A stretch of 64,000 bases of DNA, from NCBI GenBank assembly GCA_964498425.1, contig CAZCGQ010000001.1, forward strand, positions 5,779 to 69,778, given 5' to 3'. The stretch comes from an uncultured Gammaproteobacteria bacterium (GTDB lineage: Bacteria; Patescibacteriota; Microgenomatia; UBA12405; JAHJSD01). The notes below the pieces were generated by a model. That model saw nothing but the letters and a program-made list of their open reading frames with translations. It ran no database searches and had not been told where the DNA came from. Below, in pieces: positions 4,258 through 57,070 of this stretch (position 1 is the first letter of the stretch; the number at the start of each line of letters is the position of its first letter). The position numbers and the translations under genes were made by a program.

Positions 4258-5505
4258 TTACACTCTTTTTTTGAAAATGTGAAGTGCTAGAAAAGGAAGT
4301 AGCAAACTTAATATGGTTGCCAACCACGTCCAAGAGCAATAAATGCTCGGTTCCCACCAACGGTGAGCCAACTTATCTCCAAGAAAACCAAGCAATGAAA
4401 TCAATACCGGAACCAACCACAATTTCTTGTTCTCATCAAAGTCATCTCTTCTCCGGTAAACAAATATGCTGTTGATAATTAAAGCCACTATCGTCAACAG
4501 CCACCAAAAACAATTCCTGGCCGTCATCACCCCTGCCTCCTGACCTTCTTCAAACTCTCCCTCTCCGCCAACTTCTCCTTCCGTTGCCTCTCCTTGCACT
4601 TCTTCAAATCCTTCCGCCGGCCCTTCCACTACCGGCCCAACCCCAGCACCCTCAACAAACCCAGCAACCCCAACTTCTTCACTTGAATATGGTCCCGGAG
4701 CACAATCATTAACCGCCCTGACCAGGAAATAATACGTTCCGCCCGGAGTTAAACCGGAAACAGTGTAAGAAGTTACATTCCCGACATTATAATTCCCGTA
4801 AAGATAAACCCCCGAAGTTGTTCCGTAAACAATAGCGTAATGGGTAACCGTCCCAGTATCAGGTGGTGTCCAGCTTAAATTAACTTGACCAACCCCACCG
4901 CTAACCGCCGTTAAACCCAAAGGCACACCCGGTTTATCGGCATCACAGCCACCGTCACCGGCCCCGCCAAGCCCCCCATCAGTGGTAGTTGTTGTATCTC
5001 CATCTATATCACCATCCGCTAGACTTTCAAAACCAAAATTAAAATCAAATGATAAATTTTTCGACTGGTAAAGGTTACCCACACTTGTCGGAAGTTCAGC
5101 TGACAATTGATAATCCTTGTCGTCCCCGGTGATTACACTGGAAAGAATTAAATAACCTTCATTTTCCAAATCCGTCAACGTCCCAGAGAACAGACTCGCT
5201 CCAGCCGTTTCTTTGACCTCAACCTCTATCTTTTCACCTAAACTGTCAGGGTCAGTAAAGTTAACTATTTCCAAGGCAAATTCTCGATCCTCACCATAAT
5301 TATTCTCCGCCTTGATTTCTTTAGTCACTGTCCACCCCGGATAAATATTTCCTTCAGAAAATAGCGGCTTGGTTCCGGTTGAACTACACCCGCCAGAATC
5401 ACAGCTGACTGTCAAGTCAACGGCACTCGCCGGCAGACTAAAAATAAACAAACCCAAACCAATCCCGACAAAAAAAATTATTTTCTTGATCATTAATTTT
5501 GCCAA
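4258..5505 (-). CDS. secreted/membrane-anchored fibronectin type III domain protein
   Basis: 415 aa. Sec-type signal peptide (ASA|VD). FN3 signature VNLSWTPPDTGTVTHYAIVYG...YYFLVRAVND. Gly/Glu-rich linker and two or three C-terminal TM helices. Confidence 0.6.
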   Translation of the reverse strand: MAKLMIKKIIFFVGIGLGLFIFSLPASAVDLTVSCDSGGCSSTGTKPLFSEGNIYPGWTVTKEIKAENNYGEDREFALEIVNFTDPDSLGEKIEVEVKETAGASLFSGTLTDLENEGYLILSSVITGDDKDYQLSAELPTSVGNLYQSKNLSFDFNFGFESLADGDIDGDTTTTTDGGLGGAGDGGCDADKPGVPLGLTAVSGGVGQVNLSWTPPDTGTVTHYAIVYGTTSGVYLYGNYNVGNVTSYTVSGLTPGGTYYFLVRAVNDCAPGPYSSEEVGVAGFVEGAGVGPVVEGPAEGFEEVQGEATEGEVGGEGEFEEGQEAGVMTARNCFWWLLTIVALIINSIFVYRRRDDFDENKKLWLVPVLISLLGFLGDKLAHRWWEPSIYCSWTWLATILSLLLPFLALHIFKKRV

Positions 5506-7469
5506 TTAAATTGACGGCTGTCCGTCCCTAAAATATTATTTCCGTCTTTATAAAGCAAGTGTATCTCCATATTATCAACATTTTCATGAGGAGTACATAC
5601 CTCGCCTTCTGTCGAACATGACCCGATGTAAAGCGGATCCAAATTCAAATTTGGCACGTCCAGCTGTTTTTCTTTAACACCTTCAATTTGCATTTGAACA
5701 TCCTGACCTTGATAAACGTGATCATAAAATACCGAGTATTTTACCTGATCAAAACCCTGAGCATTACTAAATCCAATCATCAAATCCTCATTGTCTTGGC
5801 TGATATCAACCTGAATATGACTGTGCGGATTCGTCCCCGGGTTAGGTGACGTCAACACTTCCCAATCCGAAGGGCTATCCGTATCTACCCCTAGGGTTTT
5901 TCTAGCGATTGATCCACCGTCACCCGCTAACGGAGTTACTCCATTACCACTGCCAAAAGCATAACTGTCATCCCCCCAGCTGACAGCGTCAATTAGTGTA
6001 CCATTCCCATCCTTTAGGACTATTCTGTCTCCACTGTTTGATAAGCCATTACCAATTTTTTGTCCCAAAGAAACCTTTACTGCACTAGATGGAATAGTCC
6101 AATTAGACCAGGTACTTGCACTTTTAGCTAAAACCATGTAGCCATTGGCTGGAATATAGGTATTGGAATGACTTATTGTATCCCCTCCACTGTTATCGCC
6201 TAATGTCCAATCCTTCAAATTAACCTGACTGCTTGTATTATTGTAAAGTTCAACCCACTCATCTGGGTTCGAATCATTGCCTTCATTTTCTCCGGACGCA
6301 ACATCATAATAAACTTCATTAATTACCACATCTGCCAATCCATTCTCATTACTATTTCCACTAGAACCGCCTGATGTATCAATAACAAAATGCTCTAAAG
6401 CCGACCACCCGCTCAAGTTGCCGCTGGTATCCTCCGCTTGTACCTGCCAGTAATAATCGTTGTCTGCTGTTGTTCCAGCTTGATACTCAGAATTAGTTCT
6501 GAATAATCCTGTCGGATTAGGCCAAACTGTTCCCGTTGGCGAGCCAATATATATCCGGTAGTAATAACCGGCTATCCCATAATCATCGGTTGAATCCGCC
6601 CACTGCATTAGCGGGGTATTATCAGAAATTACTACGCCATTTATTGGCCATTCCAAAACTGGAATGCTTGGAGGTTGATCAAGGGTTAAATCTCCGCAAA
6701 CATCAGACATATCACTTTCATTGCCGTCCTTATCAACAGCAATAATTGTGTAGTAATAAGGATTATGCCCGGGAGTCATATTAGCTTCGTAATAGCTAAT
6801 TGGTGCATAAACCTTCTTGTGGTACTTATTAAACTGCGTTCCCAGCCAATAGTAATCAATATCCGCTTCCGGATTATCGTCCCAGTCAATTGTAATTTGC
6901 GGACTGGTTGTCAACCCATCACAGCCAACTTCAACTTTACCACTGCCATACCCTTGATAAATAGTCATCCCGCTTGGTTTTGATGGGGCGTTTTTAACTG
7001 TTACCACCACCCAATCAACCGAATCCCCATCAACTTCTGGATCATTAGGCACCGGTGCTAAATTCGGTTCTTTATTTCCAGACCCATCCCGAGCTTCAAG
7101 TTTAATTACATATTGGCCATCTGGAACAGTAGTCGTATCCCAAGTGTACAGAAGCTCGGAGTTAACATTGGTTGTCCGGTTAACTACGCCTGGAAATCCC
7201 GAAACCAAGTTGTTCGTTAACATATCCTCAGCAGCTAACCAATAGTGATGAGGATCATTATCAGTAATACTACCAATAATTGGAACTGCTCCTGATACAG
7301 TATATCCGTCTGATAAGCTTTCTATTTTTACCGCTGGTGCCGTCCAATCCCCTGATGAAAAATTAACCGTCGTAACCTTTTGATCAGTAAAAAAAGAATT
7401 GGTTATTGATATCCCATTAAGATTAAATAGCAATATTAAGAACAGTAGTTTAAATATCTTTTTTTTCAT
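5493..7469 (-). CDS. large secreted lamin-tail-domain (LTD) plus FN3-like repeat protein with SipW-cognate-type signal peptide
   Basis: 658 aa. N-terminal signal ends NSFFTDQKV..SSGDW (TasA-type A-F-x-D motif). LTD motif VINEVYYD...DEWVELYNNTSSQVNLKDWTL. Overlaps the sipW stop by 4 nt. Confidence 0.65.
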   Translation of the reverse strand: MKKKIFKLLFLILLFNLNGISITNSFFTDQKVTTVNFSSGDWTAPAVKIESLSDGYTVSGAVPIIGSITDNDPHHYWLAAEDMLTNNLVSGFPGVVNRTTNVNSELLYTWDTTTVPDGQYVIKLEARDGSGNKEPNLAPVPNDPEVDGDSVDWVVVTVKNAPSKPSGMTIYQGYGSGKVEVGCDGLTTSPQITIDWDDNPEADIDYYWLGTQFNKYHKKVYAPISYYEANMTPGHNPYYYTIIAVDKDGNESDMSDVCGDLTLDQPPSIPVLEWPINGVVISDNTPLMQWADSTDDYGIAGYYYRIYIGSPTGTVWPNPTGLFRTNSEYQAGTTADNDYYWQVQAEDTSGNLSGWSALEHFVIDTSGGSSGNSNENGLADVVINEVYYDVASGENEGNDSNPDEWVELYNNTSSQVNLKDWTLGDNSGGDTISHSNTYIPANGYMVLAKSASTWSNWTIPSSAVKVSLGQKIGNGLSNSGDRIVLKDGNGTLIDAVSWGDDSYAFGSGNGVTPLAGDGGSIARKTLGVDTDSPSDWEVLTSPNPGTNPHSHIQVDISQDNEDLMIGFSNAQGFDQVKYSVFYDHVYQGQDVQMQIEGVKEKQLDVPNLNLDPLYIGSCSTEGEVCTPHENVDNMEIHLLYKDGNNILGTDSRQFNWQN

Positions 7470-8056
7470 TCCTTGTTTGTTTCCTTTCCTGCCATCATCT
7501 CATCAACCTCATCATCAACTTCTTTAACCTTATTAAAGACCTTTCCTAATTCGTTTTTAATGTTGATGATCTCGCTGTAAACAATAATTACTGCTGGTAT
7601 AACAATCAAAACAATTAAACCTTCTTGCGTTTTCGCAAATGATATTATATGCCCAGCTAATGGAATCGAAAAAATCATCCCACCGATAATTTGCCCTTTG
7701 CTAATTGGTTCGCTATCATTCACATCATTGGCATCACCCTTTGTAACATATTGCATTCGATCATTATCCTCAATTATCTCAACTATCCGATGCGTTGTTG
7801 TATTTTCCGGCGTTGGATTATTAATATCACTCCTGGATTTATAGGTAATTACTTGGCCCTCCTTATATTCTCCCTGCGGCTTAACTAGCACTAAACTACC
7901 AACTGGTACACTTGGTTCCATTGAACCCGACAAAACTGTATATAATCTAAAACCCTTAGGCAAATTTAAAGCTGATATTCCAACCGTTCCCGCAATTAAA
8001 GCCAAAAAAATTATTATTAACCAATAGCTTATTTTTTTTACTAGCTTGAGATTCAT
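7466..8056 (-). CDS. sipW: signal peptidase I, archaeal/ER (Sec11/SipW) type
   Basis: 196 aa. N-terminal TM, catalytic-Ser motif LSGSMEPS, conserved TKGDANDVND (GDxN), C-terminal TM. Confidence 0.8.
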   Translation of the reverse strand: MNLKLVKKISYWLIIIFLALIAGTVGISALNLPKGFRLYTVLSGSMEPSVPVGSLVLVKPQGEYKEGQVITYKSRSDINNPTPENTTTHRIVEIIEDNDRMQYVTKGDANDVNDSEPISKGQIIGGMIFSIPLAGHIISFAKTQEGLIVLIVIPAVIIVYSEIINIKNELGKVFNKVKEVDDEVDEMMAGKETNKE

Positions 8057-8104
8057 TTTTTAATATAAATATATATAAACAATTATAATTTCTATGCTTA
8101 GTTA

Positions 8105-8132
8105 GTTGCGCGAAGATCTCTCCTCACGCAAC
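8105..8132 (-). other. GC-rich hairpin (GTTGCG...CGCAAC) between the tasA-like gene and sipW
   Basis: Imperfect hairpin in the 95-nt intercistronic gap with no adjoining U-run. Possible partial attenuator or mRNA processing site. Confidence 0.25.
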
Positions 8133-8151
8133 CCAGCTAAACATAGCTATT

Positions 8152-8748
8152 TTACTCGTTCCAACCAGGATTTATAAACTGAGTACCATCAACAACAATA
8201 TCTGCTACAGCATTAGCTCCTTGAAATTCATTTCCAGCTGATGAATCTAGCTGAAAGTATAATGCAAAACAGTGAGTAATATTGGGTGATAATTTACCTC
8301 CCCCAATTGAATCAGTTGTTGAATCCCAATTCAAATTTTTAAGCTTACCGGTATAGGTATTTTGAATTGGGCTTATATCCTCGAGATTTGCCCCAGTCAT
8401 ACAATTACCATGGTTAACCTTTACATTCAGCTTATTATAAAACCCTGATACTGATTCACTTTCCTTATCATCATAAAAGCGATATTTCATATCTACCGTA
8501 GAGGAAGGTGTGTTTTTATTATAAATTTTCATTTTATAAGGGCCACTCCAATCTCCTCCCGGCTCCAGATCGGATAAAGTTAAACTTACTGATTCCGTCA
8601 TATCACCATTCAAAGTAAAATCAAGTGCTCCAGCCGCAAATGTATTACTCTCAACAACAGCTTGATCTGTAAAATATGCACTGGTGGCACCAACGGTAAC
8701 AGCACTAACTACGCCGATCACGAATAGGCTAATTAAAATCTTTTTCAT
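8152..8748 (-). CDS. TasA/camelysin (peptidase M73) family secreted protein with SipW-cognate signal peptide
   Basis: 198 aa. Signal ends GATSAYFTDQAVVESNTFAAGALDFT, compared with TasA TWAAFNDIKSKDATFASGTLDLS. C-terminal TQFINPGWN compared with TasA ATQWNG. ATGA overlap with the upstream gene. Confidence 0.7.
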   Translation of the reverse strand: MKKILISLFVIGVVSAVTVGATSAYFTDQAVVESNTFAAGALDFTLNGDMTESVSLTLSDLEPGGDWSGPYKMKIYNKNTPSSTVDMKYRFYDDKESESVSGFYNKLNVKVNHGNCMTGANLEDISPIQNTYTGKLKNLNWDSTTDSIGGGKLSPNITHCFALYFQLDSSAGNEFQGANAVADIVVDGTQFINPGWNE

Positions 8749-8981
8749 CTATTTTCACCTCCTTTCCTTTCATCAATCATCAATTCGTCTTCAACCACCA
8801 TTGGGGAATATCTTGGATTTAAAACATCAAGACATTCAACTAAGGTAATAGCACCCCACCGACAAGCCAATATAACCTGATCTGAAATTGCTTTTAATCT
8901 CTCAGTGTCGCCCTCTTGCTCTAACTTCAAAACGATTTCTTGTAATCGTTTTTTTCCCTTTTTCCGTTCAGTTAAAGGCAT
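8745..8981 (-). CDS. small cytoplasmic protein, first gene of the sipW/tasA-like operon
   Basis: 78 aa, charged and helical, no recognisable family. Strong SD AGGGAGGT 6 nt upstream of its ATG. Confidence 0.4.
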   Translation of the reverse strand: MPLTERKKGKKRLQEIVLKLEQEGDTERLKAISDQVILACRWGAITLVECLDVLNPRYSPMVVEDELMIDERKGGENR

Positions 8982-9045
8982 ATGTACCTCCCTTGGGGCT
9001 CTGAGGCAGGAGGTTGAAGATTATTGAGGTATATTTTCATTTATT

Positions 9046-9059
9046 GTTCTTTAGAGAAC
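9046..9059 (-). promoter_or_regulatory. inverted-repeat operator GTTCTTTAGAGAAC (SinR-type GTTCTYT half-sites)
   Basis: Perfect 7+7 inverted repeat located about 15 nt downstream of the -10 element, overlapping the predicted +1. Matches the B. subtilis SinR consensus GTTCTYT. Confidence 0.5.
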
Positions 9060-9074
9060 AAAACTAATACCTTG

Positions 9075-9103
9075 ATAATATAACTCTGCCAATTATTTGT
9101 CAA
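9075..9103 (-). promoter_or_regulatory. sigma70-type promoter of the small-ORF/tasA-like/sipW operon
   Basis: Minus-strand TTGACA, 17-nt spacer, TATTAT, about 95 nt upstream of the 8981 start codon. Confidence 0.55.
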
Positions 9104-9183
9104 GAAAAGATATCCATATAACTAACTTAGGGGATAGCTAATATATACCTAAACAAGCAGTTGATCGTCTTAGATAGTGGAAA

Positions 9184-9903
9184 TTAATTTTGACTATAAG
9201 AAGTAATCTTATTCGCCTCGATATTGCCGGCTGTGTCTTCGCTGAAGAAGCTGATTGTGTTCTCCCCGGTCTGAAGTTGGCTGGTCAAATCAACTTTGTT
9301 TCCGTAAGACGTCGAAATTGGCTGACCGTTAATGGCATAGTGTATCTTTAAAACTCCAGAACCAAAATCATCATCAGCTAACAGCTGAACTTGATTACCG
9401 GAAACATTAAAAATTGTTGTCGGCGGGGAAGTATCAACAAAGATTGTTTTGAAGTCGTTTTCAAAATTCTTTTCTTCTTCATTGACCCGCTTATCAACAG
9501 CCAAAACTTGAAAATCATAAAATCCGTCACCATCCGGACAGTTGAAGTTAATTTCGTTATCAGAATCGTAATCCTTCTTGGTAAAATACTGCCAATTTTC
9601 TTGGTTGAATGAATACCACAGTTCAACGTAGTCTACTCCACTGCCAACATCAGTCGCCTGGTAAATAATTTCAAAACTGCTATCCGGGCTGATTCCTTTC
9701 ACCGGCTGGCTGGCTGTAACTTCGGTTATCTCCGATTCCGGTTTAATCCAGTCCCCCGTTGACAGTCGAAAACCACCAACCGACGCTTTATCCTGAAAAG
9801 CAGAATAAGTAAGCGGAACAAATACTACTGCTGACGAAATCAATAAAACCAAAATTGGCCAACGAAAATACTCCTTCAAGTATTTATCCTTTCTTAATTT
9901 CAT
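9184..9903 (-). CDS. secreted protein with SipW-cognate-type signal peptide
   Basis: 239 aa. Signal ends PLTYSAFQDKASVGGFRLSTGDW. It shares the post-signal S[ST]GDW motif with the 658-aa LTD protein. Confidence 0.5.
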   Translation of the reverse strand: MKLRKDKYLKEYFRWPILVLLISSAVVFVPLTYSAFQDKASVGGFRLSTGDWIKPESEITEVTASQPVKGISPDSSFEIIYQATDVGSGVDYVELWYSFNQENWQYFTKKDYDSDNEINFNCPDGDGFYDFQVLAVDKRVNEEEKNFENDFKTIFVDTSPPTTIFNVSGNQVQLLADDDFGSGVLKIHYAINGQPISTSYGNKVDLTSQLQTGENTISFFSEDTAGNIEANKITSYSQN

Positions 9904-9916
9904 TTGTTATCCAGTT

Positions 9917-10567
9917 TTATAATGCCTGGGTCCCGGTAAACTCAATATTTAAATCAACTGATTTTTCGGCTATTTCATTGCCAGCGTTATCACTGACCCG
10001 AATCCACATAACAAAGTGTCTCAGCTGATCAGGCCCAATCGCTTCACCGGTAATTTCATCTGAATTTCCAGCCCACCATTGCATGTCGTGCCAGTTGGTG
10101 GAAGTAGATACCTTTGACCAGTTATAATCCTGGTTTTCATAAGCCCACCAGGCGTCATCTCGACTGTTATACTCTAAAATTCTCGCTTCTACTGCATTTT
10201 TCAAAACTCCCCATGACCCGGAATAACCATCGGAATTAGCGTAAGCACTTAAAGTTGTCGTCACCACCAAACTAATTTCGGATTGGCTGACATTTTTTAA
10301 TCGGAAATAATCTCCAACCAAATAGCCGGGATACATCCCGGAAATAGTCCCATAGTTAGTTATCGAATCACACAACTTACCGTTGTCGCCATCGGAAATA
10401 CATCCTTCCCCGGTCATCCCTGTTGCTCCGATTTTTAAATCAGCGTTACCGGTCGTCATTGTCATTCCCTTGACCTCGCCCTTATTGTTAAAAACCGCAA
10501 AGGCCGTTCCACTAACTACCCCAACAGTCACTGCAATTATAAATATACTTATAAGAATTCTTTTCAT
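9917..10567 (-). CDS. TasA/camelysin-like secreted protein paralogue
   Basis: Likely start MKRILISIF at 10567, preceded by SD GAGGGGGTGA. Signal ends GTAFAVFNNKGEVKGMTMTTGNADL, resembling TasA AAFNDIKSKDATFASGTLDL. The ORF track extends it to 10609. Confidence 0.5.
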   Translation of the reverse strand: MKRILISIFIIAVTVGVVSGTAFAVFNNKGEVKGMTMTTGNADLKIGATGMTGEGCISDGDNGKLCDSITNYGTISGMYPGYLVGDYFRLKNVSQSEISLVVTTTLSAYANSDGYSGSWGVLKNAVEARILEYNSRDDAWWAYENQDYNWSKVSTSTNWHDMQWWAGNSDEITGEAIGPDQLRHFVMWIRVSDNAGNEIAEKSVDLNIEFTGTQAL

Positions 10568-10714
10568 TAATCTCACCCCCTCTCTTTTGAAGTAAGCAAT
10601 AACTCCCAATTGTTTGAAGCCGATAGTAAAATAATGCCTGGCAGTATTTGGCTAACCACGTTTAATTAGGCTAACACTTTCAGAATAGACCGAAAAAAAT
10701 TCCTTGTCAAGAAT

Positions 10715-11122
10715 TTACGCCTGGGGATACATCTGGCGGAATAATTTTATCTTCTTTAACCTTTCAACGGCAAAGTCAAAAATAAACTGGGAGAAAATTA
10801 TAATACCGAAAAAATCAATTATAACGTCGCGAATAGTTCCCTCCCTAGTCGGAACAAGTGTCTGGTGAAACTCGTCAGACATACCGTAAAGTGTAGCAAT
10901 AATAATCGCCAGTTTATTAGCCGACTTCCTCTCGCCAAGACCCAATCGAAGAAGAGAATATAGAACGCCGTATTCAATAACGTGCAGTGTTTTAAAGATA
11001 GCAAAATTAACCCAATAATTACCCCCCATACCGACCTTGTGCTGACTGGAAGCCCAAAAAATCAAGGACATCCAAATCAAGGCTGGTAAAAATCTAAGAT
11101 ACTTGGTTGCCTTTTTCATCAT
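10715..11122 (-). CDS. VanZ-like family membrane protein
   Basis: 135 aa. LPALIWMSLIFWASSQ is a typical VanZ-family N-terminus. Four TM helices. Confidence 0.5.
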   Translation of the reverse strand: MMKKATKYLRFLPALIWMSLIFWASSQHKVGMGGNYWVNFAIFKTLHVIEYGVLYSLLRLGLGERKSANKLAIIIATLYGMSDEFHQTLVPTREGTIRDVIIDFFGIIIFSQFIFDFAVERLKKIKLFRQMYPQA

Positions 11123-11801
11123 TCTTCATTTTATCAAATAATTCTTTTATTTTCGGGCCAAACCCTACCCCGCCAAGAAGCAGTCCTCCCATGCCAATAA
11201 ACCCACCGGCGATTAACTTACCCTTATCCCGAGGTTCTTTCTGGCTGGTTTCACCAAGAACGTCCCCAGGCCCACTGACCTCAAGATCGTTATCTGAATC
11301 CGAAAGAGTTGGAATTGGTGTTGGTGAAACTTCCTGAGTAGGGGTTGGCGATTTCTTAGGACTTGGTGTCGGGGTTAATGTTTCCGTAGGAGTCGGCGTT
11401 GACGTTTCCTTTGGCGTCTCCGTCGGCTTCTTTGTTGGTGTTGAAGTTGGCTCATCCACAGCACGACAATCCTGATTGGCCTCTCCCTTTGTAGGTTCAG
11501 CCTGACACCAACTGCCGTAAACATAGGCCCAGGTGATCCCCTCCTCCGAATAATCGTATAGTTTGTTATCCTTTTCTAGTTGATCATGGTTAAGTAGACG
11601 TACCTCATCTCCACTGTTGTTGAACATGCTATCCATTTCGATAACTGCCAAACTTTTTGCCTCAATCTCCTTGCTGAATTTCTTTGGAGAACTTTTACCT
11701 TCTTCATCATCAATATACCAATCAATCAAATCAACACTAAAATCATTATCATTGTAAATTTCCACCCATTCATCTTCATTATCCGCAGGTTTAGGCATCA
11801 C
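11094..11801 (-). CDS. lamin-tail-domain protein, downstream half (second LTD, Thr/Pro-rich linker, C-terminal Gly-rich hydrophobic anchor)
   Basis: LTD motif NEDEWVEIYNDNDFSVDLIDWYI. The GTG/ATG start at 11801 is in frame with the upstream LTD ORF through a single TAG at 11973-11975. Confidence 0.5.
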   Translation of the reverse strand: MMPKPADNEDEWVEIYNDNDFSVDLIDWYIDDEEGKSSPKKFSKEIEAKSLAVIEMDSMFNNSGDEVRLLNHDQLEKDNKLYDYSEEGITWAYVYGSWCQAEPTKGEANQDCRAVDEPTSTPTKKPTETPKETSTPTPTETLTPTPSPKKSPTPTQEVSPTPIPTLSDSDNDLEVSGPGDVLGETSQKEPRDKGKLIAGGFIGMGGLLLGGVGFGPKIKELFDKMKNDEKGNQVS

Positions 11802-11972
11802 TTCCCAGATAAAAATGTTGTCATAATCACGCGATGAGTTCCCCTGAGTCGGTGTATCCGTTGGATCATCCCCAGGCGTATTTGTTGGCGTTACTTGCCC
11901 TTGCGATAAACATGAACCGCCTCCCTGATTAAATTGATCGCGGCTGACATTAGTTAGGCTCTGCCAGCCCCC

Positions 11973-12356
11973 CTAACCATCTGGCTTTCTCCCATAAGTA
12001 ACATTCTCCCCAGGACTTTGTTGATAATCATAGGAATCTACCGTAGATTCATTATTATCTAATAATCTTAGTGTATCAGCGGAAGAAACATTTAAATTAA
12101 AATTGCCGCTTTGAAAAGACAAACAGCTTTGGCCATCTAATACCGTACCGCTAGAAATTACATACTTTTGGGTTCCACCGCTGTCATCAATAATCCATCC
12201 GCTGACATCAACGCTATCATAACCGGTGTTATAAATTTCAACCCATTGCTCACTGCTTGGCTCAATTAAAAATTCATTTAGCTTAACTTCGGCTTGACAT
12301 CGGAGAGGAAAAAACATAAGCAAAACAAAGAAAAAAATGAATTTTCTCATTACCAT
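11973..12356 (-). CDS. lamin-tail-domain protein, upstream half (signal peptide plus first LTD)
   Basis: 127 aa. Signal peptide ending RCQA. LTD motif LNEFLIEPSSEQWVEIYNTGYDSVDVSGWII. Ends at TAG 11973-11975, and the reading frame continues open for 57 codons into the next ORF. Confidence 0.5.
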   Translation of the reverse strand: MVMRKFIFFFVLLMFFPLRCQAEVKLNEFLIEPSSEQWVEIYNTGYDSVDVSGWIIDDSGGTQKYVISSGTVLDGQSCLSFQSGNFNLNVSSADTLRLLDNNESTVDSYDYQQSPGENVTYGRKPDG

Positions 12357-26828: not shown

Positions 26829-27278
26829 TTAATGCACTTCAACAATCTTGTACATGGACTTACCAGCCGGCGTTTCAACTTCGACTGTTTCGCCCTTTTT
26901 ATGACCAATCAAGCTGGCCCCAATTGGAGATTCGTAAGATACTTTCCCGGCTATAGGATCTGCTTCTCCACCGCCAACTAACTGCATTTCTCTGGTTTTA
27001 CCATTGACTTCAACAACCACCTTATTACCAACTCCAACTGTACCATCACCATTTTTCTCGGTAATTTCAACATTAGCTAACCTTTGCTCTAAATCGCCTA
27101 TTTGGTTGCGAACTATGGTCAGATTTTCCCTCAAATTGTGATAAGCGGAGTTTTCTGATAAATCGCCTTCCTGACGGGCCGCTTCCATATCTTCAACTAG
27201 GCGGTCACGCTCTTTTTCTAACTGGCGTAATTTTTTCTTTAGTTTTCTGTAACCTTTTTTAGTTAATATGTTTTTCAT
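26829..27278 (-). CDS. greA: transcription elongation factor GreA
   Basis: 149 aa. Coiled-coil N-domain plus FKBP-like C-domain. Confidence 0.9.
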   Translation of the reverse strand: MKNILTKKGYRKLKKKLRQLEKERDRLVEDMEAARQEGDLSENSAYHNLRENLTIVRNQIGDLEQRLANVEITEKNGDGTVGVGNKVVVEVNGKTREMQLVGGGEADPIAGKVSYESPIGASLIGHKKGETVEVETPAGKSMYKIVEVH

Positions 27279-27303
27279 TTCTATCTATTTTTAAATTTAA
27301 GCA

Positions 27304-27330
27304 ATAAAAAAACCCCGACTGTGCGGGGTT
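27304..27330 (-). terminator. intrinsic terminator (CCCCG-ACUGUG-CGGGG stem-loop plus U7) in the greA leader, downstream of tRNA-Glu
   Basis: Minus-strand reading aaccccgcacagtcggggttttttt. Perfect 5-bp GC stem with a 6-nt loop, followed by T7. Confidence 0.6.
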
Positions 27331-27425
27331 AATAACCTTCCAATACTTACTAACCCCCTATTTAAAAGGCTTAATCTCCTTTCGAGAGAAAATGTAAGTA
27401 TGTCGGTTTCGCACTTCCATGAGGT

Positions 27426-27453
27426 ATTATAACAATTTCCAACCCCTTGTCAA
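27426..27453 (-). promoter_or_regulatory. consensus sigma70 promoter (TTGACA, 16 nt, TATAAT) driving the greA leader or a small RNA
   Basis: Minus-strand TTGACAaggggttggaaattgtTATAAT begins 13 nt downstream of the tRNA-Glu 3' end. Predicted TSS near 27418, about 90-110 nt upstream of the terminator. Confidence 0.55.
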
Positions 27454-27465
27454 ACAATCTTTTTG

Positions 27466-27538
27466 TGCTCCTACGGGAATTCGAATCCCGGTCTTCAGGA
27501 TGAGAACCTGATGTCCTAGGCCTCTAGACGATAGGAGC
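27466..27538 (-). tRNA. tRNA-Glu (anticodon CUC)
   Basis: 73-nt cloverleaf with acceptor GCTCCTA/TAGGAGC, anticodon loop TTCTCAT and T-loop TTCGAAT. No encoded CCA. Confidence 0.85.
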
Positions 27539-39006: not shown

Positions 39007-40044
39007 CTATTCTAATACTCCTTCTATTCGTTCCATTAACGCCTCATCCTCTACAAGCCTAGTTGTAAACTCTGCCTCAATTTGCCTAATTCGCTCCCGG
39101 CTTAAGCCGAACTCAACACCAACTTCTCTTAAGGTCCTACCTTTTCCATCTAATAAACCATGTCTAAGAACGGCAATCACTCTCTCTCTTGGCTCAAGTG
39201 ATTCCATCATATCCACAACACATGCTTCCATTTCACTCTGCCTGCTTTGACTAATCAGTGAAAAACTTTCATCTTTAATGAAGTCACCCAACTCGCTATC
39301 ATCGTCATCATCCATTGGTCTATTTAATGAAAGTGGAGCCCAAAAATCCATAAGTTTTAGCTCTAATTCCTGACGGGTTAAATCGTATTCTTTTGCTAGT
39401 TCCTCCATAGTTGGGTTTCGGCCAAGTTCATGAGTCATAACAATTCTTTTTTTAAGAAATCGCCGGTACCAATCTCCTGAATGAGTAGGTACTCTTATTA
39501 ACCTTCCCTTATCACTAATTGCCCGAGTAACCGCTTGTCTTATCCACCAAGTAGCATAAGTAGAAAATTTATATCCAAGTGTGTAGTCATATTTATTTAC
39601 CGCTCGATTTAGCCCAATAACTCCTTCTGAAATTAAATCCTCAAACTCAACCCCTCTACCTCTATATTTCTTACTTATACTAATCACTAACCGGAGATTA
39701 CAAAGAACAAGTTTTTCCTTTGCTTCCTCGGCTAAACCAATTTCATATTTCAGCTTATCCTCTTCTTTCTGACTTAAATCAGGCTGATTAAGTTTAACCT
39801 CTGCTTCTCTTCCTGCCGATATCCATCGTCCCAAAGCTATTTCCCCCTCATGAGTCAACAATGGTTCCTTATCAGATTCATATATCCACCAGCCAACACA
39901 ATCACTGGCATCCATGGGTGGATTATAAGATTCTTCATCTTCTGGTTCTTGAATGAATCGTGGAATAGAAGTTATTTCCGCAGGATAAATAGTATCGCGT
40001 TCTTTGGGGCTTTCTGATGTTTTTATTTTTTCACTTGACATCAT
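39007..40044 (-). CDS. RNA polymerase sigma factor, sigma-70 family (RpoD-like regions 2-4, no region 1.1)
   Basis: 345 aa. LISEGVIGLNRAVNKYDYTLGYKFSTYATWWIRQAVTRAISDKGRLIRVP (regions 2.2-2.4) and TLREVGVEFGLSRERIRQIEA (region 4.2). Confidence 0.85.
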   Translation of the reverse strand: MMSSEKIKTSESPKERDTIYPAEITSIPRFIQEPEDEESYNPPMDASDCVGWWIYESDKEPLLTHEGEIALGRWISAGREAEVKLNQPDLSQKEEDKLKYEIGLAEEAKEKLVLCNLRLVISISKKYRGRGVEFEDLISEGVIGLNRAVNKYDYTLGYKFSTYATWWIRQAVTRAISDKGRLIRVPTHSGDWYRRFLKKRIVMTHELGRNPTMEELAKEYDLTRQELELKLMDFWAPLSLNRPMDDDDDSELGDFIKDESFSLISQSRQSEMEACVVDMMESLEPRERVIAVLRHGLLDGKGRTLREVGVEFGLSRERIRQIEAEFTTRLVEDEALMERIEGVLE

Positions 40045-47984: not shown

Positions 47985-48055
47985 GAAGACGTGTTGCCGG
48001 GCGTGGATTCGAACCACGATTAACACGTTCAGAGCGTGCCGTCCTACCATTAGAC
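47985..48055 (-). tRNA. tRNA-Gln (anticodon CUG), U1:A72
   Basis: 71-nt cloverleaf with acceptor TGCCGGG/CCCGGCA, anticodon loop CTCTGAA and T-loop TTCGAAT. No encoded CCA. Confidence 0.85.
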
Positions 48056-48109
48056 GACCCGGCAAGCAAAAACTATTATATTTTACCATTTCCACCCCAA
48101 CCTCAAAAA

Positions 48110-48188: not shown

Positions 48189-48309
48189 TGCCCGGTCTTT
48201 GGAGCGAGGTGGAACCACCTGTACCCATTCCGAACACAGAAGTGAAACTCCTCAGCGCTGACGATAGTCTATCGGCAACGGTACGCGAAAATAGGTCAAG
48301 GCCGGGCAT
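48189..48309 (+). rRNA. rrf: 5S ribosomal RNA
   Basis: CACCTGTACCCATTCCGAACACAGAAGTGAAACTCCTCAGCGCTGACGATAGT aligns with E. coli CACCTGACCCCATGCCGAACTCAGAAGTGAAACGCCGTAGCGCCGATGGTAGT. Helix I is GCCCGGTC/GGCCGGGC. Confidence 0.9.
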
Positions 48310-56272: not shown

Positions 56273-57070
56273 TCATAAAATTGAAGATTGAAGCAGACGC
56301 GTTTTATTCCATAGTTTACTTCTAATTAATTTATCCTCAAAAAATTCAGCCGGTATTCCCTTATCCTCAACAACTAAATCTGGAAATTTTTTTAATAAAT
56401 CAACTTTCATAGACTCTTTGTTTGATCTCCTTGCTGTCTCAACCAACCCTAGGAACTTTCTAAAATTATCTTCAATCTCGTGGGGCTTAAAAAGAGTTTT
56501 TATAATCTCCTCGTCCTTATTGTTGAAAAGACTCTTGGATTTAAAGCAAAATAAGTTAGGCTGGAACTGAACAAAAATTCCTTGAAGATATTCCCTAACA
56601 TCATTGATAGTCAACCATACCGATCTATGCAGTTGAACAAAACCTAACTTCACTAGCAAATTTCTAATATCACGCCGAGATGATTTTTGAGACTCTGGTA
56701 TGTCATAGGAAACTATTGTCCAACTGCCATCCCATTTTCTAGGTGCAGTAAAAAATCTAAACTTAAGATTAAAAACATCCTGCCACCATTTAGAATTCAG
56801 ATTAATATTTATTTTCTCATCTCTGTTGTTAAAGATACCTTCGTTTTTCAACCGATATAGAGAAGTACTTGCTGCAGATTTTTCCTTTCTGATCTTTTCT
56901 AAATATTCATTAAAAAATTGAAAGGGAAGGTTATGAATGGGTCGTCTATTTCCACGACAAAAATCACGTCCATGAATATTTATGTCGATAAGCAAAAGTA
57001 AACCCAAAATAATCGAATCCTTAAAGGTTATCGAAGAATACCAACGTGGAGTTTTAATTCCTTTTTGCAC
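56273..57070 (-). CDS. PaaX-family transcriptional regulator-like protein
   Basis: 265 aa. STSLYRLKNEGIF matches PaaX RTALFRLNKEGWL and RKWDGSWTIVSYDIPESQKSSRRDIRNLLVKLGFVQL matches PAWDGKWLLLLSEGLDKSTLADVKKQLIWQGFGAL. Cas2-like PaaX_C fold pattern. Confidence 0.55.
   Translation of the reverse strand: MQKGIKTPRWYSSITFKDSIILGLLLLIDINIHGRDFCRGNRRPIHNLPFQFFNEYLEKIRKEKSAASTSLYRLKNEGIFNNRDEKININLNSKWWQDVFNLKFRFFTAPRKWDGSWTIVSYDIPESQKSSRRDIRNLLVKLGFVQLHRSVWLTINDVREYLQGIFVQFQPNLFCFKSKSLFNNKDEEIIKTLFKPHEIEDNFRKFLGLVETARRSNKESMKVDLLKKFPDLVVEDKGIPAEFFEDKLIRSKLWNKTRLLQSSIL

Follow-up and report, generated by a model that had tools for sequence, protein, structure and literature searches.

A sigma-70-type promoter and a candidate Shine-Dalgarno-masking leader, with a lineage-specific palindrome, ahead of a TasA-like/SipW-like operon of a probable Patescibacteria bacterium

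What controls the TasA-like/SipW-like operon encoded on the minus strand of a 64-kb stretch of contig CAZCGQ010000001.1 (the whole stretch is called the window below): a DNA site bound by a repressor, or an element carried by the messenger RNA? The initial annotation of this locus had placed a SinR-type operator at the promoter of the operon, and proposed that the logic by which Bacillus represses tapA-sipW-tasA is conserved here. Our own answer, which we hold tentatively and at somewhat less than an even chance, is that a sigma-70-type promoter and a conserved leader that masks the Shine-Dalgarno (SD) sequence head this surface-fibre operon, and that the palindrome taken for an operator is a lineage-specific 5' stem-loop of the transcript.

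Two relatives were used for comparison. L059 is an ENA metagenome contig with the same intergenic architecture, and the 236-aa protein encoded upstream on it shares 72% identity with the 239-aa protein of the window. L062 is more distant, its upstream protein being 52% identical. The features of the promoter and leader, together with the first open reading frame (ORF) that follows, are these:

9098-9103, minus strand: -35 hexamer TTGACA, invariant in L059 and L062, inside the conserved CTTGACAAAT
9075-9080, minus strand: -10 hexamer TATTAT, 17 nt from the -35 hexamer; identical in L059, TAAGAT at equal spacing in L062
9068, minus strand: predicted transcription start, an A, the seventh nt after the -10 hexamer; placed from promoter geometry and conserved in L059
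9003-9105, minus strand: promoter-leader block reaching from the -35 box to about +66, conserved in L059 with 93.2% identity over 103 nt
9044-9061, minus strand: 18-bp palindrome TTGTTCT-CTAA-AGAACAA, at about +8 to +25, which includes the 14-mer 9046-9059
9032-9040, minus strand: conserved AUGAAAAUA motif, invariant in the window, L059 and L062
9003-9014, minus strand: pyrimidine-rich anti-SD tract ACCUCCUGCCUC, of which CUCCUGCCU is invariant in the three lineages
8986-8992, minus strand: SD sequence GGGAGGU of the 78-aa ORF, within AGGGAGGT, 4 nt before the ATG at 8981
8745-8981, minus strand: lineage-specific 78-aa orphan ORF that follows the conserved leader and ends in an ATGA overlap with the start of the TasA-like gene

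The promoter proved to be near-consensus, as had been annotated, and is of the sigma-70 type. TTGACA and TATTAT, separated by 17 nt on the minus strand, match the consensus at 11 of 12 positions and have the top promoter score between 3 and 15 kb; the hexamers are intergenic and lie upstream of co-directional genes. Sites scoring at least 11/12 number 8 in the whole window, against 1.8 ± 1.4 in first-order Markov simulations, and are mostly intergenic and ahead of genes. The window also encodes a sigma-70-family factor (39007-40044, minus strand) with Sigma70_r2, r3 and r4 domains, short at 345 aa. Because of the 11/12 score, the enrichment of such sites and the presence of this gene, we consider the promoter call sound. 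In many related loci, promoters of the form TTGACA-N16-18-TANNNT are found 110-300 nt upstream of the TasA-like gene. These results support the prediction that this promoter drives the TasA-like/SipW-like operon. Another promoter-like site, TTGACA-17-TATTCT (10710-10682), is found ahead of the upstream gene pair, and because of it the 9103 promoter may lie within a larger unit. The sigma-70-family gene has an 11/12 promoter of its own, TTGAAA-17-TATAAT, at 40091-40063.

How well is the sequence that follows the promoter conserved? In the comparison with L059, coding DNA is about 77% identical and the adjacent gene's third codon positions are 52% identical; the distal (upstream) half of the intergenic DNA reaches about 55%. 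The promoter-leader block, at 93.2%, stands far above the last two values and is therefore under strong purifying selection, or has been recently exchanged. The longest perfect run in the block, 39 nt at 9070-9032, contains the whole palindrome. In L062 the leader keeps CTTGACAAAT, AGUUUU, AAUGAAAAUA, UCAA and CUCCUGCCU, with an 11-nt gap in place of the right arm of the palindrome. Searches of all collected sequence with blastn-short and nhmmer found leader copies only in L059, L060 and L062, and a scan of viral contigs found none. The palindrome was not present in L054, L003, L061, L056 or L002. From these comparisons it appears restricted to the clade of the window and L059, with the more deeply conserved parts of the leader lying elsewhere.

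Among the deeply conserved parts is the CCUCCUGCCU tract. Three lineages preserve it as a nucleotide sequence, and its predicted partner is the SD sequence further downstream. The strong SD described earlier ahead of the first ORF is indeed there: AAGGGAGGT is followed by ACAT and then by the ATG at 8981, the SD itself being GGGAGGT at 8992-8986. In the window, the conserved CCUCCUGCC (9014-9006) is predicted to pair with it at -10.4 kcal/mol. L059 lacks the 78-aa ORF, and there the predicted partner of the tract is the SD region of the TasA-like gene, in a leader fold of -33.9 kcal/mol (z -2.25). Masking is thus predicted in both although different genes follow the leader, and this speaks for the answer given above, as does the finding that L062 keeps the -35 box, AGUUUU, AUGAAAAUA and CUCCUGCCU without the right arm of the palindrome. 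A 22-codon small ORF (9040-8972) starts at the AUGAAAAUA motif and has no SD. We rejected it as a conserved peptide, given the missing SD, the different frame of the conserved tract in L062 and the lack of an equivalent peptide in L054; it is probably not translated. Because small ORFs read the anti-SD tract in different frames across lineages, the constraint is on the nucleotides and not on a peptide.

In the mechanism that we favour, transcription would start near A9068 and produce an 87-nt leader that would fold into a 5'-proximal 7-bp stem-loop formed by the palindrome (+8 to +25), continue as an A-rich linker, and end in the anti-SD tract that would mask the SD of the first cistron. Because the predicted leader fold has both a 5' stem-loop and an SD-masking tract, control would be exerted mainly on the RNA, through translation initiation, mRNA stability or both, and the palindrome would be a lineage-specific 5' stem-loop and not a SinR operator. 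As RNA, the palindrome is predicted to form a hairpin whose stem has 7 bp and whose loop has 4 nt (-5.5 kcal/mol, z -2.47 against shuffles). At the equivalent position of L062, the conserved AGUUUUC is predicted to pair with GAAAAU, and the leaders of L054, L061 and L006/L007/L017 have unrelated hairpins that start 4-11 nt past their predicted starts, with loops of 3-17 nt. These hairpins occupy the same place and differ in sequence and spacing; therefore an RNA stem-loop fits better than an operator of fixed geometry.

Several observations weigh against this mechanism. The fold of the whole leader in the window is not better than that of shuffled sequences (z -1.05), and in some 14 independent TasA-like leaders the first 70 nt show no general excess of structure over shuffles, with z mostly near zero. 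The window and L059 carry the same stem and L062 has none, so these three lineages offer no covariation for it. Its perfect conservation does not go beyond the average of the block, since at the block's 7% divergence zero changes in 18 nt are expected with P ~0.28. The stem-loop is also weak, and some 7 nt separate it from the 5' end, itself placed by prediction; a classical 5' stabiliser would sit closer. Finally, the site of a dimeric repressor would look just like this palindrome, which has perfect 7-bp arms centred 11 bp apart at +8 to +25.

Is it then the SinR site of the initial annotation? The 14-mer GTTCTCTAAAGAAC occupies 9059-9046 on the minus strand (plus-strand form GTTCTTTAGAGAAC), and the distance of about 15 nt that had been given between it and the -10 box is exactly 15 nt. 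The heptamers GTTCTTT (9046-9052, plus strand) and GTTCTCT (9053-9059, minus strand) both fit GTTCTYT exactly, in agreement with the earlier description. Two other parts of that description have to be amended. The 14-mer had been called a perfect inverted repeat; its two heptamers differ at one position, and the perfect dyad is TTGTTCT-N4-AGAACAA (9061-9044). It had also been said to overlap the start site; with the predicted +1 at A9068, the dyad is downstream of the start.

The likeness to the SinR operators of B. subtilis PepsA and PtapA consists of identical heptamer half-sites in inverted orientation, sited in both cases at the promoter of a TasA/SipW-type operon. In addition, 15 contiguous nt, TTTGTTCTCTAAAGA, are identical to the start of an eps-derived high-affinity SinR oligonucleotide, TTTGTTCTCTAAAGAGAACTTA, as given in PMC3163267. 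Abutting inverted GTTCTYT pairs are expected 0.0015 times per window, before correction for the many other known motifs that could have been matched. The geometry is different. The characterised SinR inverted repeat in the same source is GTTCTCT-AA-AGAGAAC, with a 2-bp spacer; the heptamers of the kinB SinR-1 site are at -57/-51 and -48/-42 (PMC5733473), and the PepsA repeat GTTCTCTAAAGAGAAC is a 16-mer (PMC12010548). The spacer is 2 bp in all characterised SinR inverted repeats and 0 bp in the window, where TTTGTTCTCTAAAGAACAAT is identical to the oligonucleotide over its first 15 nt but lacks 2 bp, and forms a 14-mer in place of the 16-bp GTTCTYT-N2-ARAGAAC. With 2 bp lost, the half-site centres are 7 bp apart instead of 9 bp, and a SinR-like dimer would therefore be unable to occupy both; we infer that the loss turns one half-site against the other by about 70 degrees, which would keep such a dimer from contacting them at once.

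The number of sites differs as well, since SinR-regulated promoters have several over 80-100 bp (PMC3163267) and the window has one. The initial annotation had proposed a genome-wide search for further copies of the motif and for its regulator; made within the available sequence, this search went against the assignment, with GTTCTYT at random frequency, no further copy at a promoter and no XRE regulator seen. The heptamer occurs 21 times in the 64-kb window against 24.6 ± 5.2 expected, which is chance level, and GTTCT-N0-8-AGAAC once against 0.62 expected per 64 kb. The latter is absent from 58 related loci (209 kb in total), more than 50 of which had been retrieved as TasA-like loci. A search of the window for a second copy of the 14-mer returned three other matches with 2 mismatches each, all inside ORFs. 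The site is missing from L062 and from the 58 related loci, and is thus conserved only as far as the closest relative, in contrast to what would be expected of a shared Bacillus-type operator.

As to the regulator, no SinR/XRE gene was found by phmmer and an XRE hidden Markov model (HMM) in the six-frame ORFs of the window, where the best match (E 0.0024) was the sigma-70 gene, nor in 61 related loci; in neither set was a SinR/SinI/SlrR-like gene seen, a difference from B. subtilis. The phmmer queries, from which the HMM was built, were the six proteins SinR, SlrR, 434 Cro, 434 cI, P22 C2 and Xre; in a control the HMM detected DicA, HipB and C-protein at E 1e-9 to 1e-20. Pfam and NCBIfam searches of about 48 window proteins gave only the sigma-70 factor and a PaaX-like protein as DNA-binding candidates. 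The earlier remark that no XRE/SinR-like gene is visible in the window is thereby borne out.

The operon itself, and the organism that carries it, also bear on the SinR question. The genes are the following:

8152-8748, minus strand: TasA/camelysin-family protein, 198 aa, with a SipW-dependent-type signal peptide (PF12389, 32.6 bits, cut-off 22.5; TIGR04088, 31.4 bits, cut-off 19)
7466-8056, minus strand: SipW-like (archaeal-type) signal peptidase I, 196 aa (TIGR02228, 107 bits, cut-off 51.85)
4258-7469, minus strand: 658-aa lamin-tail-domain/immunoglobulin-like (Ig) protein and 415-aa fn3 protein, co-directional, overlapping and downstream

A SipW-type signal peptidase is therefore adjacent to a TasA/camelysin-family protein, which is the context of tapA-sipW-tasA. 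The description of a sipW/tasA-like operon holds for these two genes, whose assignments pass the HMM cut-offs, but not for the first ORF past the SD, which is not tapA, sipW or tasA. The 658-aa and 415-aa genes are probably in the same transcription unit. Two more proteins with TasA-type N-terminal regions are encoded upstream in the same orientation. Around the operon, positions 4258-12356 (minus strand) form a dense cluster of secreted-protein genes: three lamin-tail-domain proteins, an fn3, a CAP-domain and a VanZ-like protein, and at least three TasA-type N-termini.

SinR/SinI is known as a system of the Bacillus group. The nearest genome locus to the window belongs to a metagenome-assembled genome (MAG) of Candidatus Paceibacteria, with 57% protein identity, and TasA homologues occur in Patescibacteria (PMC9245690). 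Because of these two findings the host is probably a bacterium of the Patescibacteria, or Candidate Phyla Radiation (CPR), and not a Bacillus as in the known SinR system. With geometry, copy number, regulator search and conservation all against it, and in spite of the half-sites and the type of operon, we regard it as very improbable that the 14-mer is an operator bound by a SinR/XRE-family repressor and that the Bacillus repression logic is conserved here. An exact match to the half-site of a well-known operator in a distant phylum counts for little when geometry, regulator and regulon do not bear it out.

Could the dyad be the operator of a different dimeric repressor, which by binding at +8 to +25 would block promoter escape or elongation into the fibre operon? 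Its perfect 7-bp arms lie just downstream of the strongest local promoter, and among nine strong promoters of the window only this one, at 9103, has a 7-bp-arm dyad within 60-70 nt. All 18 positions are identical in L059. A candidate regulator is encoded in the window in the form of the PaaX-like protein (56273-57070, minus strand; PaaX_M/Cas2-like domain); the 64 kb yielded no other conventional candidate for a transcription regulator. Against this, nothing links the PaaX-like gene to the palindrome, and the palindrome is a singleton: allowing up to 3 mismatches, a search for a second 18-mer in the 64 kb gave 3 matches where 6.4 were expected, none of them in a promoter. It is missing from L062, which otherwise keeps the leader, and from the 58 related loci; conservation with L059 is equally strong in its non-palindromic flanks; and the equivalent positions elsewhere hold palindromes of unrelated sequence and spacing. 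We consider an operator of this kind unlikely, though far from negligible. Known boxes were compared informally with the palindrome. The Cheo/LexA box, GAAC-N4-GTTC, has its arms in the opposite order, and the Rex box, TTGTGAA-N4-TTCACAA, has only the outer TTGT/ACAA in common with it.

The 78-aa ORF was also considered as an autoregulator and rejected, as it is an orphan with a generic three-helix model whose sole similarity is to ankyrin repeats, without indication of DNA binding. It has the codon usage of a gene (score 0.369 against a real-gene mean of 0.33, a value that no off-frame window reaches). A search among 5.8 billion clustered proteins and one among 1.84 billion cluster representatives found no homologue but itself, save a weak ankyrin-repeat match (E 3.5e-5). 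Its AlphaFold2 (AF2) model is a three-helix unit with a predicted local distance difference test (pLDDT) score of 80 and no significant fold match in the PDB. Relative to L059, the ORF is an insertion, and in L062 a different, unrelated small ORF (1524-1748) occupies the equivalent slot. The slot between the leader and the TasA-like gene thus seems, in these loci, to collect lineage-specific small genes.

Signs of exchange are also seen at the 3' end of the leader. L059 (1392-1691) and L053 (1-170) have the same sequence over the last 48 leader nt, the SD and the first ~19 nt of the gene, and the start of the signal peptide is near-identical for about 35 nt. The window (8626-8796) has the SD and the signal-peptide start in common with them, whereas the mature proteins diverge; the TasA-like protein of L059 is only 43% identical to that of the window, and that of L053 79%. 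This suggests that a promoter-leader-signal-peptide cassette may have been recombined onto different TasA-like cargo genes.

The recent recombination of such a cassette could by itself explain the similarity of the block, and belongs to a further explanation in which the palindrome has no function of its own. It would be a chance dyad, or a small lineage-specific insertion, in a leader conserved for its promoter escape region, its anti-SD tract and AUGAAAAUA. The block's divergence predicts an unchanged palindrome often enough, as calculated above, L062 does without the right arm, and palindromes of equal quality (perfect 7-bp arms, 0-8 nt between them) number 0.84 per kb. Cassette exchange is also suggested by L059 and L053, in which one leader 3' end and signal-peptide start stands ahead of different TasA-like paralogues. 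The chance of finding such a dyad in this particular 45-nt stretch is modestly low (P ~0.03), however, the dyad falls inside the single longest perfect run, and hairpins are found at the equal relative position in other lineages. A palindrome without function is accordingly something we doubt, while granting it a real chance.

A bolder proposal, to which we give a similarly limited chance, extends the leader reading beyond this locus. The promoter-leader block would be a cis-regulatory leader RNA, undescribed so far, of Patescibacteria TasA-like fibre operons, defined by the -35 box, the 5' hairpin, AUGAAAAUA and the CCUCCUGCCU anti-SD tract and present in three metagenomic lineages. It would gate translation by SD masking, and travel as a promoter-leader-signal-peptide cassette ahead of different TasA-like cargo genes and small orphan ORFs.

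Leaders of other types occur among the related loci. In L040, L003, L056, L026, L019, L023 and L005 the leader has a GC-rich hairpin followed by a T-run, resembling an intrinsic terminator, and these hairpins are possible attenuators or ends of small terminated transcripts; the leader of the window has no hairpin of this type. L006, L007 and L017 have in common a 9-10-bp hairpin, GACCATTCTC...GGGATGGTT, in the first ~50 nt past the predicted start, and L006 and L007 a second one of differing sequence at the same position. The first 70 nt of these three leaders have z-scores of -2.9 to -4.4, and their hairpin may represent a different conserved leader RNA.

Elsewhere in the window, a 12/12 promoter at 27453-27426 heads a structured transcript of about 150 nt (window 27301-27453, minus strand); a terminator-like hairpin closes the transcript, and greA (26829-27278) follows immediately. 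The Rfam matches of this transcript are all below threshold, among them the enterobacterial rnk leader (E 0.76), and the element may be of the GreA-leader type. A transfer RNA (tRNA) gene just upstream of this transcript (27466-27538) has its own 11/12 promoter at 27576-27547. An isolated 5S ribosomal RNA (rRNA) gene at 48191-48307 (plus strand) adjoins a tRNA gene on the opposite strand (47994-48064, minus); mechanical ORF calls overlap both, and there is no 16S or 23S gene in the window.

The palindrome, promoter and leader add one more case to ordinary classes of element (a promoter accompanied by a leader or an operator), from a lineage that has received little study. Patescibacteria are mostly uncultivated and have few transcription factors, and their gene regulation is almost undescribed. 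CPR organisms appear to place strong sigma-70-type promoters and long conserved leaders ahead of TasA-like surface-fibre genes, and the locus offers a concrete candidate for the regulatory element of an operon that probably serves attachment to hosts or surfaces.

How does it compare with known systems other than SinR? Taken as DNA, it recalls lac O1, a site for a dimeric helix-turn-helix protein centred at about +11: in both, a dyad of some 18-21 bp lies just downstream of the +1 of a strong sigma-70 promoter. The lac system differs in its identified cognate regulator, its auxiliary sites and its regulon copies, none of which was found for the palindrome of the window. Taken as RNA, the palindrome can be set beside the 5'-proximal stabiliser stem-loops of Gram-positive mRNAs, as in the aprE and ermC leaders. 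Like these, it would be a short stem-loop close to the 5' start of a long leader, ahead of a gene for a highly expressed secreted protein; its predicted stem is weak by comparison (-5.5 kcal/mol), with about 7 unpaired nt before it. The anti-SD tract, in turn, can be compared with the SD-sequestering leaders, that is, RNA thermometers, translational riboswitches and anti-SD leaders. The leader of the window has no recognisable ligand-binding or thermosensor architecture, and Rfam gave no match at the gathering score or at E up to 1, except for one chance-level small nuclear RNA (snRNA) match. What it has in common with these leaders is a conserved CCUCC-containing tract whose predicted pairing partner, in two lineages, is the SD of the first cistron.

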